A program made the position numbers and the translations under genes. Below, in pieces: positions 3,577 through 36,481 of a stretch of 45,561 bases of DNA. Source of the stretch: Candidatus Woesearchaeota archaeon (GTDB taxonomy: Archaea > Nanobdellota > Nanobdellia > SCGC-AAA011-G17 > PNOQ01); the NCBI GenBank assembly GCA_043812195.1, contig JBDRML010000017.1:1-45561 (forward strand). The letters run 5' to 3'. Within the stretch, counting starts at the first letter, position 1. Each line of letters opens with the position of its first letter. Below the pieces are notes generated by a model. That model had not been told where the DNA came from. It did not search any database and saw only the letters and a program-made list of their open reading frames with translations.

Positions 3577-3740
3577 TTATTTATCCTCCTACCCTTGGTC
3601 ATTATTCATTTTTAGAAGCAGCCCAACAAATTCGCCAAATAACCGGCAAACAGTCAAAAAGTTCCAATATATAGAGAAATAAGCTCTTTTTAAATGCTTC
3701 TATTTGCAGTATTTTCTCCCCTATCAGCACATATTAAAAA

Positions 3741-33488: not shown

Positions 33489-34769
33489 CTATTTCAAACT
33501 AACATATCCGATTAATCTCCAACGTCCACCAACCATTCTGGAGATTGTAATTCTATCTTCTTTTCTCAAACTAACTGGTTTTTTTAAATTAACTTCAATA
33601 AAATCCTTTCCGACACCAATAACACTTCCAACCGTAACCGAAGAATTAACATTCATCATTAATATTTCACCTAACTTAATAGGATCAACCTTTAACTCAT
33701 CCTTAGAACCAACAACTCTATCTAATAAATGCACTTCTAATTTTAATTTTTCATAAGTTTCCAACATATGGCCTTCTAATCCAACTACATTTCCAACCAA
33801 ACTATCAGATTTAACAATAGAAGGATCTAATTTTGTTAAAATACTTGAAGATCCACCAGGAGCAATTTCTTCAACTTCTTCTCCACCCCACACAAAACCA
33901 ACAATTTGAGTTTTAATAGGAATCCAAACAATCTTATTATGTTTCTCTTTTTTCAAGCCAGGTCTTATCTCAATCAATTCACCCCTCTTAAAAATACCTT
34001 GTGCCATAGCTCCTCCCAAAACACCACCAGAAATTTTCTTTATTGGAGTTCCAGGTTTATTCACATCAAAGGATCTAGCAACATAAAAAATCGGATATTC
34101 ATTTTTCTTTCTTTCAGGAGTCTTAAATCTTTCTTGTATGATTTGTATTAAAGCATCAATATTAACATTATGCTGAGCAGAAATAGGAATTATCGGAGCA
34201 TCTTCAGCAATAGTACCTTTCAAAAAATTCTTAATCTGATTATAATTTTCAAACAATTCATCTTTACTAATCAAATCTATTTTATTCTGAACAACAATTA
34301 TATCTTTAATTCCACTTATTTCCAAAGCCATCAAATGCTCTTTAGTTTGTGGTTGAGGACAAGGTTCATTAGCAGAAATTAATAATAAAGCAGCATCCAT
34401 AATTGCAGCTCCAGATAACATAGTAGCCATTAAAGTCTCATGACCTGGTGCATCAATAAAAGAAACTTTTCTTAAAGGAACATTATCAGTTTTACATTTA
34501 GCACATTTAAAACTAGAACCATAACATTCAGGTTCCGAACATTTAACACATTTATAAAAAGTTGTATCAGCATAACCTAATTTTATAGTAATTCCTCTTT
34601 TTAGTTCTTCAGAATGGACATCAGCCCAGCGCCCAGAAAGAGCTTGAGTTAGAGTAGTCTTACCATGGTCTACGTCTTTGGTGTGGAAAAGTTTCCCTTT
34701 CTAATGTCCAACAAGACCAATGCTAATTTCAGGCACTAGTTCTTTTTCCTTATTTTTAATTTTTTTCAA
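33489..34769 (-). CDS. eif2g: Translation initiation factor aIF2 gamma subunit, two exons (34769?-34706 and 34675-33489; about 416 aa)
   Basis: VPEISIGLVG-H|VDHGKTTLTQALSGRWADVHSEELKRGITIKLGYAD, Zn knuckle, DAPGHETLMATMLSGAA, QNKID, RWRLIG. The start (TTG 34769, after GAGGGGG) is uncertain. Confidence 0.92.
34676..34705 (-). other. 30-nt BHB mRNA intron in aIF2gamma
   Basis: Central helix UUGG/CCAA, bulges AC|A and AG|A, intron hairpin GAAAGG-GAAA-CUUUUC, exon helix UGGUCUUG/CG(U)AGACCA; in-frame TAG inside; splicing gives GGA CAC GTA (G-H-V). Confidence 0.9.
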
Positions 34770-35984
34770 TCTGTTTTCTAACCCCCTCAATCTTTCCAAT
34801 TTTTTAGGATGAGATATATAAGGAATAATCTTCTCCCTAAAACTTATAAAACTATCCCTTTTGATTCTTATGTCATATTTTAATGTTGAAGATCGTTTTG
34901 TTTTACAATATTTGCGAGATATATAAGATTCAATTTTATCCAATTTTAATAGATATTTATACAATAAAGCAGTTTTTAAGAGTTTTATAATTTTTTTATT
35001 ATCTTTATATTTTTGGGTTCCAAAAGCAATAGAAATATCGAAACTATCTAAAGAAATACTTCCTTCTGCTTCGATTAATCCAGCGAAAAAAGCATGTCTA
35101 ACAGATTTGGGAGAATAATATAAAATAGAAATTAAATTTTTATTAAAATGATCAAATACATATTCTTTAAGAATTCTGTTGCAAACTTCAACACGATAAA
35201 CATAATTACCATATTGATGTTTATTAATAGAAATTACTTCAGCATATTTAGTTATTTCTTTATTTGGTCTAAAATCTGGTTTTAAAATAAGTTGTACTTT
35301 TGGATCAACTTGGTTTAATCTTAATATCAAATCTTTAAATTTTTGTATAAATTCTATATTTTTATTGCTTACGCCAACCTTTCTAGCCCCCCCACATTTA
35401 TCACCAACCCATTTACCAAATTCTTTAGCAAATTTTTCATTAAAAACCACCACATTTGGAAGCGGTCTATCTTGATAATTATCTTTTCTTTGGTTGGTTA
35501 TTTGTTCTGATGTTATATAAAAATATTTATTTTTGTTTAAATTAGTTGGTGGTTTGATAAATATATCATTTTCAAATATATTAAAGAAAATCCTATCTGC
35601 TAAAGATCTTCTAAAAGTAGATACTTTTTCTTTTTCTAAATCTACTATTGCTGGAAGTATCAAAGAATGTTCCCTACCACTCGTACCAACTTTTATCTTG
35701 TTTAAATTTTTTTCGAATTGTTTTAAGTTTATTTTAGTTAATTTAGAAATACTAATAATTTCTTTAGATGACATATATCTCTTGTATTTTTTATTATCAC
35801 ATATTTCAAAACCCCTTCTTAATCCAAATAAGTGCCTAACATTTATTCCAATATGTTTAGCAACAATTCTCCAATCTCCAAATTTCTCCCTAAGTAAAGA
35901 AAATACAAAATTTCTGAATTTACCATCTAGGTAAAACATAGCAGTCGTATTTAACAAATTTCTAAGTGATATTTTTACTAACAT
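34701..35984 (-). CDS. Free-standing LAGLIDADG homing-endonuclease-like protein, in frame with aIF2gamma exon 1 and ending at the intron TAG
   Basis: Degenerate motif 1 FAKEFGKWVGD, motif 2 FFAGLIEAEGSI, C-terminal IIPYISHPKK; N-terminal HTH-like segment; last residues are aIF2gamma's KELVPEISIGLVGH. Confidence 0.8.
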   Translation of the reverse strand: MLVKISLRNLLNTTAMFYLDGKFRNFVFSLLREKFGDWRIVAKHIGINVRHLFGLRRGFEICDNKKYKRYMSSKEIISISKLTKINLKQFEKNLNKIKVGTSGREHSLILPAIVDLEKEKVSTFRRSLADRIFFNIFENDIFIKPPTNLNKNKYFYITSEQITNQRKDNYQDRPLPNVVVFNEKFAKEFGKWVGDKCGGARKVGVSNKNIEFIQKFKDLILRLNQVDPKVQLILKPDFRPNKEITKYAEVISINKHQYGNYVYRVEVCNRILKEYVFDHFNKNLISILYYSPKSVRHAFFAGLIEAEGSISLDSFDISIAFGTQKYKDNKKIIKLLKTALLYKYLLKLDKIESYISRKYCKTKRSSTLKYDIRIKRDSFISFREKIIPYISHPKKLERLRGLENRLKKIKNKEKELVPEISIGLVGH

Positions 35985-36004
35985 AACTTAAAAATAAGAA
36001 ATGA

Positions 36005-36049
36005 TTCATAAACAACTTTCGGTGGTGTTTGTCGACCTTGTCTACCTTT
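36005..36049 (-). promoter_or_regulatory. Second copy of the 45-nt nuclease-gene upstream element
   Basis: AAAGGTAGACAAGGTCGACAAACACCACCGAAAGTTGTTTATGAA, 20 nt before ATG 35984. Confidence 0.85.
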
Positions 36050-36067
36050 GTAAACATTTAATAGTAG

Positions 36068-36481
36068 TTACTCTTGCTTTCTTTCTTCTGAACTTTCTTC
36101 TTTTCCACCGAAAATTTCTCCTATTCTTTTAGAACCTTCTTTTACAATCTTTAAATTTATTTGAGAAACATCTTCATCAATTAAATTTCCCCTGATAGTT
36201 TTTCTTTGTTTAATGCCTTTATCTTTAGTCTTGCCACCAACACCTTTAATAAATAAAGGTCTTTTTCTTGCAACACCTTCTATATCTTTTCTTAAAGGAA
36301 ATCCATCATTATCACTTCCACCAGTTATTTCTAACTCATATCCAGATAAACCAAATGAATTACCACTTACTTTCTCTCCCAATTTCTTACTTCTAAAAAC
36401 ATCAGATTCAGCATCAGTTGTTTGCTTTTTATAACTTTTCCCAGTTTTTGGATCATTTATATTTAATTTAAATTCTGCCAT
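36068..36481 (-). CDS. rps6e: 30S ribosomal protein S6e
   Basis: FKLNINDPKTGKSY, GYELEITGGSDNDGFP, RKTIRGN, QINLKIV. Confidence 0.97.
   Translation of the reverse strand: MAEFKLNINDPKTGKSYKKQTTDAESDVFRSKKLGEKVSGNSFGLSGYELEITGGSDNDGFPLRKDIEGVARKRPLFIKGVGGKTKDKGIKQRKTIRGNLIDEDVSQINLKIVKEGSKRIGEIFGGKEESSEERKQE

Follow-up and report, generated by a model that had tools for sequence, protein, structure and literature searches.

The window analysed here, a 45,561-nucleotide (nt) stretch of DNA from a groundwater Candidatus Woesearchaeota archaeon (contig JBDRML010000017.1 of assembly GCA_043812195.1), carries at its gene for translation initiation factor aIF2-gamma an open reading frame (ORF) for a LAGLIDADG nuclease and a 30-nt bulge-helix-bulge (BHB) intron placed in the P-loop codons. 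Together these probably constitute a composite selfish element, in which a free-standing homing endonuclease travels with a mini-intron within the 5' end of this essential gene. All genes of the locus lie on the minus strand, and the nuclease gene is single-copy in the 0.94-Mb genome. The locus comprises the following features.

33489..34675, minus strand: aIF2-gamma exon 2, from the remaining His codon (..VDHGKT) to the stop at 33489, matching GTP_EFTU (E=5e-29) and eIF2_C (E=8e-28)
34676..34705, minus strand: 30-nt BHB intron in the P-loop codons, holding the TAG at 34703-34701
34706..34769, minus strand: aIF2-gamma exon 1 counted from the TTG start, doubling as the C-terminal tail of the nuclease
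34701..35984, minus strand: 427-amino-acid (aa) LAGLIDADG ORF reading into aIF2-gamma exon 1, with its ATG at 35984 and TAG at 34703-34701
34734-34736, minus strand: alternative aIF2-gamma start GTG
34767..34769, minus strand: likely aIF2-gamma start TTG (416-aa product after splicing), conserved in the window and in loci L015 and L016
34782..34788, minus strand: Shine-Dalgarno-like GAGGGGG within the 3' coding region of the nuclease, 12 nt before the TTG
35058..35090, minus strand: second LAGLIDADG motif, FFAGLIEAEGS, with invariant E307
35388..35420, minus strand: first LAGLIDADG-type motif, FGKWVGDKCGG, with invariant D195
34751..36071, minus strand: inserted cassette of 1321 nt, missing from contig X3 record 11
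35985-36067, minus strand: GC-rich spacer of 83 nt between S6e and the nuclease ORF
36068..36481, minus strand: ribosomal protein S6e gene, the upstream neighbour (Pfam Ribosomal_S6e, E=4e-36)
36072..36111, minus strand: fossil of the former aIF2-gamma N-terminus, (S)VEKKKVQKKESK, readable in frame +1 at the 3' end of S6e

The nuclease ORF has no stop codon of its own; it traverses the first coding part of aIF2-gamma and terminates on the TAG at 34703-34701 within the intron, its C-terminus reading ...ELVPEISIGLVGH. Comparison with relatives revealed that the ...KELVPEISIGLVGH at this end is the usual aIF2-gamma N-terminus, and that altogether the final ~12–22 residues of the ORF correspond to the normal N-terminus of aIF2-gamma. 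The factor resumes in the same frame (VDHGKTTL...) 30 nt after the start of the TAG-containing insert, and its exon 2 shows 69–72% identity to same-family relatives. The predicted products are thus 427 aa from unspliced RNA, 821 aa from spliced RNA read from the nuclease ATG, and 416 aa from spliced RNA read from the TTG at 34769. An earlier reading made from the letters of the window without database searches (the sequence-only reading) had described the read-through of exon 1 onto the intron TAG, the 427- and 821-aa sizes, and the GAGGGGG 12 nt before the TTG, and our analysis bore out each of these. It had also described S6e and aIF2-gamma as common neighbours, which agrees with the ~19 of 29 relatives' loci where a crude motif search placed S6e upstream of aIF2-gamma. 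ARAGORN and Rfam searches gave no matches in the window.

Structure prediction assigned the ORF to the LAGLIDADG enzymes. An AlphaFold2 model of the 427-aa ORF, built on the alignment of homologues, had a mean predicted local distance difference test score (pLDDT) of 88.8 and a predicted template modelling score (pTM) of 0.85, and contained the two-fold pseudo-symmetric alpha-beta-beta-alpha-beta-beta-alpha arrangement. The best Foldseek matches were LAGLIDADG enzymes, namely the intein endonuclease TliVMA, I-DmoI, PI-SceI, PI-PfuI, and I-Tsp061I, with a probability of 1.00 for I-DmoI, TliVMA, PI-SceI, and PI-PfuI; the match to I-DmoI had a target-normalised template modelling (TM) score of 0.62–0.68 with only 17–20% sequence identity. 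Both motifs end in an invariant acidic residue: among 17 sequences, G190, K191, W192, G194, D195, C197, G198, and G199 of motif 1 and A301, G302, E305, A306, E307, G308, and S309 of motif 2 were invariant, motif 1 (GDxCGG) being atypical in sequence and motif 2 reading EAEGS. The N-terminal region of ~175 residues was well folded in the model and is additional to the I-DmoI-type enzymes, whereas residues 416–427, the peptide encoded by exon 1, had pLDDT values below 50 and are modelled as disordered and outside the nuclease fold. The 15 database homologues, at 34–63% identity, had neither a functional name nor a precomputed Pfam domain, and one was listed as 'hypothetical protein'. Judged by the model, the ORF is a monomeric two-domain LAGLIDADG homing endonuclease of an unnamed family with an I-DmoI-like fold. 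An intein was rejected: Pfam found no Hint or intein family in the ORF, which starts M-L-V and ends G-H before V, and neither an N-terminal Cys/Ser nor a C-terminal His-Asn followed by a nucleophile is present, in keeping with the lack of intein residues noted earlier from the sequence.

The intron (34705..34676) splits the P-loop codons such that exon 1 (...GGAC) and exon 2 (AC...) join to give CAC, a His codon, and excision of the 30 nt restores a perfect GHVDHGKT P-loop. In the window, exon 1 can pair with exon 2 as an outer helix, followed by a 4-bp central helix (UUGG/CCAA) that is flanked by 3-nt bulges on opposite strands (AC↓A and AG↓A; arrows mark the predicted cuts) and by an inner hairpin. 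Cleavage of a BHB falls after the second bulge base, and this rule placed the intron at 34705-34676, the splice sites being set by hand reading of the fold and comparison with homologous introns. The sequence-only reading had correctly put the TAG inside the intron, but the splice borders that it implied do not hold, those set here lying two bases further left.

All 25 distinct homologous introns had a 4/4-bp central helix, two 3-nt bulges, and an inner hairpin, and the hairpins were unrelated in sequence in each intron, yet always paired. In locus L008 the central helix was compensated (TCGG/CCGA instead of TTGG/CCAA), and hand reading of the sequence showed the same in L010. Intron lengths ranged from 29 to 35 nt (including 29, 31, 32, and 35 nt) and were often not multiples of three; excision always yielded GHVDHGKT, which is the P-loop of 46 intron-less relatives. 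The window insert recurred identically in independent assemblies (L014 and contigs of run X1), and the genome encodes both the splicing endonuclease EndA (PF01974, 93.8 bits, 182-aa ORF) and the ligase RtcB (E=1e-144). These comparisons indicate a real, canonical BHB intron whose structure is maintained by compensatory change and which would be spliced by the host. A second intron position was found in L018 and L021, 8 nt downstream of the usual one (GHVD↓HGKT instead of GH↓VDHGKT), with an insert of ~34 nt; this nuclease family occurs at both loci, where the gene of L018 ends on its own stop and that of L021 is interrupted. The L021 intron (3590-3670) forms a good BHB with the central helix GUCG/CGAC, and that of L018 (5340-5420) has a 3/4-bp helix.

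The borders of the insertion were read from an element-free contig. X3 record 11, a DNA contig of 1662 nt that is 98.5% identical to the window over 455 nt of aIF2-gamma, joins the S6e 3' end (36072) directly to 34750, skipping the cassette, and also lacks 30 nt in total, distributed over five gaps between 34668 and 34703. It appears to be the allele of a near-identical strain without cassette or intron. The cassette consists of the last base and stop of S6e, the 83-nt spacer, the body of the nuclease ORF, and a new Shine-Dalgarno sequence and start codon for aIF2-gamma, and it sits ~13 codons into the original aIF2-gamma ORF. The codons that it displaced persist as a fossil: (S)VEKKKVQKKESK is homologous to the aIF2-gamma start MVEKKKQEAKKND... 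of relative G010, which overlaps the S6e end there, and the position of the ancestral ATG is TCG in the window. This fossil N-terminus in the S6e 3' end fits the junction of the X3 contig and thereby corroborates it. The earlier suggestion that the element may have brought along a copy of exon 1 therefore stands for the new start codon and ~6 codons and fails for exon 1 as a whole, since both the contig and the fossil end the cassette at 34751. Beside the intron site, X3 record 11 also has two synonymous differences from the window, in the Val and Gly codons that end exon 1 (34707 and 34710), which may reflect a conversion tract or variation of the target site.

The S6e/aIF2-gamma junction is a variable spot in other genomes as well. 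Among L032, L036, and L046–L049, several same-family genomes start aIF2-gamma inside the S6e 3' end, where the two genes overlap by up to ~38 nt in different frames, and others have small genes, such as an ORF of ~60 aa for a zinc ribbon, between the two.

Translation of aIF2-gamma appears to be served by the signals that the cassette provides. Among 16 loci with a full or remnant nuclease, 12 contained a GGAGG-type site 3–12 nt before an ATG, GTG, or TTG in frame with exon 1, at a constant place in the C-terminal coding region of the nuclease although the encoded amino acids differ; by comparison, GGAGG occurred only 6 times in 15,784 nt of nuclease body. The start Leu codon was TTG in all three window-clade loci for which DNA was available, where TTG makes up only 12–20% of Leu codons, and the N-terminus counted from the TTG at 34769 agreed with relatives in length and composition. 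The conserved Shine-Dalgarno sequence and start imply that aIF2-gamma is made on its own, very probably as a 416-aa protein from the TTG at 34769, the internal start that the sequence-only reading had proposed as one option. Further upstream, at 34814-34821, the codons for the conserved PYITH of the nuclease spell the TATA-like TTATATAT, ~45 nt before the TTG. Possibly it serves as an internal promoter, but the whole genome is rich in AT, and not all loci keep the motif at the DNA level.

The distribution of the two parts was examined in related genomes. The 5' end of aIF2-gamma could be read in 50 of the 60 closest genomes, 46 of which had an uninterrupted P-loop, including all 24 from the family of the window; these 24 had neither nuclease nor intron. 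The intron was present in two of the 50, together with the nuclease in G041 and without it in G029, and the remaining two (G039 and G043) had an intein a few codons downstream. Across 240 genomes of the order, a strict intron pattern was found in 20 (reversed control, 0) and an intact nuclease (profile E<=1e-100) in 6, all 6 of which also had the intron. The same profile hit 27 genomes of the order more weakly (E 1e-6 to 1e-19), matching other LAGLIDADG ORFs, inteins, or short C-terminal remnants and no intact copy of this nuclease; the remnants were those of G075, G187, and G222, intron-bearing genomes in which the last 10–50 nuclease codons remain before aIF2-gamma. A search of viral contigs gave 92 pattern matches and no confirmed relatives.

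Phylogenetic analysis agreed with this picture. On the aIF2-gamma (host) tree, nuclease presence required 10 changes, at least 5 of them forced by well-supported branches, and L016 and L015 nested next to species that belong to two other genera of the family and have no nuclease. On the nuclease tree, the copy from an Aenigmatarchaeota genome (L008) paired with a Woesearchaeota copy with modest support (83/39). The nuclease is therefore optional and patchy, with an empty site and a series of decaying copies.

These observations can be joined into a mechanism with two parts. The first would be the 1.3-kb cassette, lying ~13 codons into the gene, which encodes the two-domain LAGLIDADG nuclease and whose 3' end gives aIF2-gamma a replacement Shine-Dalgarno sequence and TTG start. 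The second would be the ORF-less 30-nt BHB intron in the P-loop codons, 45 nt downstream of the cassette, which host EndA and RtcB are expected to excise. The nuclease would cut intron-less aIF2-gamma alleles in the highly conserved DNA of the P-loop, repair from an element-bearing copy would transfer both cassette and intron, and the intron would protect the carrier by interrupting the recognition site. We infer P-loop DNA as the target from the co-occurrence of all six intact nucleases in the order with the intron, the two intron positions 8 nt apart, the conservation of these codons, and the presence of inteins at the same codons; two positions within 8 nt are what would be expected if any interruption of a ~20-bp site protects.

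Several observations weigh against this interpretation. The Pfam LAGLIDADG_3 match, at residues 296–386, fell just below the cut-off (22.0 vs 22.5 bits, E=2e-4). The thermodynamic fold of the intron region was no better than that of shuffled sequences (z = -0.77; 44 of 200 shuffles equal), and the sole metatranscriptome contig, from run X7, spanned only 33634-33824, away from the junction, while X8 gave none. The empty allele is a single assembled Logan contig with only 19 nt of the S6e side in the aligned stretch. The strict intron pattern misses variant introns, which makes the counts above lower bounds. Because 14 of the 20 intron-bearing genomes had no intact nuclease, the intron can persist, and perhaps arise, independently of it. 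In L012 and L022, which share one sequence, a frameshifted nuclease stands beside an intron-less aIF2-gamma; the P-loop there reads GHIDHGKT, with a G-to-A change directly after the usual intron site, and the locus could represent a resistant site or a decayed element. The cleavage target could also be the insertion site of the cassette itself.

This last possibility leads to a rather unlikely alternative, in which the nuclease homes without any help from the intron: it would target its own insertion point at the S6e/aIF2-gamma junction, and the intron would be an older passenger that was co-converted from 45 nt away. The insertion of the cassette inside the aIF2-gamma ORF and the 14 intron-bearing genomes without an intact nuclease are compatible with this account, and PMC6083498 describes free-standing phage endonucleases that cleave a conserved gene next to their own. 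However, the insertion region encodes the poorly conserved, lysine-rich N-terminus, which would make a poor long-term target compared with P-loop DNA, and the upstream neighbours vary between loci, with no S6e upstream in L002. The invariable company of the intron in genomes with an intact nuclease and the two closely spaced intron positions in nuclease loci likewise speak against it. The idea that the spacer at 35985-36067 contains a degraded version of the sequence from the end of the intron into the beginning of exon 2, serving as a target duplication or an operator, was rejected: in local alignments of the 160 nt upstream against the spliced target of the same locus, 214 of 300 shuffles equalled the window, and the best of 12 loci was equalled by 21 of 300.

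The sequence-only reading had proposed that the shared frame is a splicing switch, that is, a layout selected so that splicing efficiency sets the dose of the free 427-aa nuclease against the 821-aa fusion. The layout is real in the window and was present in 14 of the 25 distinct full-length homologues (one shortened sequence, P0016, was excluded from the count), down to 34–40% identity; the disorder of the exon-1 tail in the model makes a free nuclease with such a tail plausible. The remaining 11 of the 25 had their own stop, so that the arrangement said beforehand to argue against a switch, random frames with separate stops, was found in part. The unfused forms were diverse: L009 and L020 overlapped aIF2-gamma in another frame, L010 had its own stop followed by aIF2-gamma in another frame, L018 had a GTGA stop/start overlap, and L024 was in the same frame with a TAG directly before the ATG. 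Its sister L013 is fused and differs solely in having a Tyr codon in place of this TAG at the junction. On a nuclease tree computed after removal of the tails that derive from aIF2-gamma, the fused/unfused state changed at least 6 times, with at least 4 changes forced by well-supported branches, and it was hardly clustered (27 of 500 label shuffles equal). The in-frame layout is expected by chance in one case in three, and from the TTG onward aIF2-gamma itself keeps the frame open. Because the layout is recurrent yet its state flips repeatedly on the tree, these sequence comparisons did not show it to exceed chance plus descent.

The early stop codon in the intron gave a similar result. An in-frame stop lay 1–2 codons past the GGA codon in 23 of the 25 distinct introns, which taken alone would favour a switch, but it was no less frequent where an intact nuclease is missing (12 of 13 introns) and is thus a feature of the intron; selection plausibly favoured it as a way to end translation of aIF2-gamma message that is still unspliced and has a disrupted P-loop. 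With the conserved Shine-Dalgarno sequence and start making aIF2-gamma independent of the fusion, a dedicated switch or conserved regulatory device is not upheld, and we regard it as decidedly unlikely. The simplest account looks like tight packing, with the read-through into aIF2-gamma as a by-product. The Shine-Dalgarno sequence and start of aIF2-gamma would be embedded in the last helix of the nuclease, and in a shared frame any stop after the TTG would kill aIF2-gamma, making the stop of the intron the first one permitted; this same-frame overlap with the embedded start is why the nuclease frame ends on the intron TAG. At this locus, free nuclease would nevertheless be made only from unspliced RNA, and the 821-aa fusion would arise where ribosomes that started at the nuclease ATG meet spliced RNA. 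An improbable extension combines both ideas, namely a two-part mobile element homing into the aIF2-gamma P-loop in which, in fused lineages, the tRNA-splicing enzyme of the host gates the nuclease dose and the spliced message yields the fusion.

It is highly improbable that the protein has been domesticated for a non-nuclease host role, such as a WhiA-like DNA-binding regulator or an N-terminal domain of aIF2-gamma in fused lineages. The WhiA N-terminal LAGLIDADG domain is among the fold matches (rank 49), the well-folded region of ~175 residues has no assigned role, and spliced long transcripts would yield a fusion, but both acidic residues at the catalytic positions are invariant, and the patchy presence in 6 of 240 genomes, the decayed copies, and the near-identical strain without the gene do not fit a host function. 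There is a negligible chance that the 30 nt are no intron but a pseudogene lesion, an assembly error, a recoded TAG, or a translational bypass: the window insert is in frame and a multiple of three, so that TAG read-through would add 10 residues, but it lies within the GxxxxGKT loop, it is identical in independent assemblies, all 25 inserts fit a canonical BHB with covarying hairpins, and homologous inserts of 29, 31, 32, and 35 nt break the frame, the 29–35 nt length range ruling out bypass, TAG read-through, and a pseudogene.

The closest known parallel to the composite element is collaborative homing in phages. In cyanophage S-PM2, the psbA gene contains a group I intron that has no ORF, and the free-standing endonuclease F-CphI is encoded next to it (Zeng, Bonocora, Shub 2009, as summarised in PMC6083498); self-cleavage is blocked by the intron, which in turn owes its mobility to the nuclease. 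A related case is trans-homing involving mobE and I-TevIII of T4 (PMC2790892). As in psbA, a free-standing endonuclease gene here adjoins a gene with a small ORF-less intron, and the same logic is proposed. The differences are that the host here is an archaeal cell and not a phage, that the intron is a 30-nt protein-spliced BHB and not a self-splicing group I intron, that the nuclease is of the LAGLIDADG type, with a putative cleavage specificity, and not Endo VII-like or HNH, and that the cassette lies inside the 5' coding end of its target gene, overlapping the start in frame. By this analogy, the locus would be, with somewhat better than even likelihood, the archaeal BHB-intron counterpart of phage collaborative homing.

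Other archaeal elements share single traits with the locus. I-DmoI and I-Tsp061I, from BHB introns of ribosomal RNA (rRNA) genes, have the same monomeric two-domain LAGLIDADG fold and a tie to archaeal BHB introns, but they lie inside large rRNA introns, whereas the ORF described here precedes, and is not part of, an intron of 30 nt that interrupts a protein gene; the additional N-terminal region and low identity also set it apart from I-DmoI. The cbf5 intron of Crenarchaeota (Watanabe 2002, Yokobori 2009; PMC2738675) is likewise a short BHB intron of a protein gene with gain and loss among relatives. Unlike it, the present intron lies in the aIF2-gamma P-loop of a DPANN Woesearchaeota-type lineage and has a linked homing endonuclease gene as a possible mechanism of spread. 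LAGLIDADG inteins in the P-loops of translation GTPases strike the same few codons, as in G039 and G043 (GHVDHGK↓T), but the window ORF has no Hint domain, is outside the host protein, and would entail removal of only 30 nt at the RNA level.

According to PMC7714728, no coding-region BHB intron other than that of cbf5 had been reported in archaea up to 2020. Our literature search, which mainly covered sources outside subscription journals and supplements, found no paper that reports a BHB intron in aIF2-gamma or LAGLIDADG genes in DPANN. The aIF2-gamma intron would be a second such case and a widespread one, as at least 20 of the 240 genomes from one DPANN order carry it, and it is tied physically and phylogenetically to a homing endonuclease gene outside it. 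The collaborative type of system is known from phages; its archaeal host, BHB mini-intron, LAGLIDADG partner, and insertion within the start of the target gene are new. For ORF-less archaeal mini-introns, nuclease-driven gene conversion with the intron as self-protection offers a testable mechanism of intron gain. In addition, the locus looks like an intermediate in the route that has been proposed for the initial pairing of endonuclease genes with introns. Were the two-part element with a splicing gate true, it would be the first example of a mobile BHB intron in a protein gene and, in archaea, of RNA splicing that sets how much homing endonuclease is made. For annotation, gene callers will split or shorten aIF2-gamma at such loci or call a nuclease with an aIF2-gamma tail.

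Other LAGLIDADG elements were seen in the genomes of relatives. The P-loop codons of aIF2-gamma are also struck by inteins, a third kind of element: the aIF2-gamma frames of L050 (G039:C30) and L066 (G043:C29) are 930 and 985 aa long with an intein of ~500 aa, and these inserts, a few codons from the intron site, end in ...GGVLCHN right before TT... Another LAGLIDADG intein was found at the GGQ motif (..TKGGQ↓C...VHN↓SQQ..) of an 800-aa aRF1 ORF in L004 (G012:C1, 724-3126). Loci L102–L110 (for example L108 1102-2442, L109 1246-2727, and L110 982-2421) contain distant stand-alone LAGLIDADG-like ORFs of 380–494 aa (E 1e-14 to 1e-19), three of which lie directly 3' of a ribosomal protein S9 gene.

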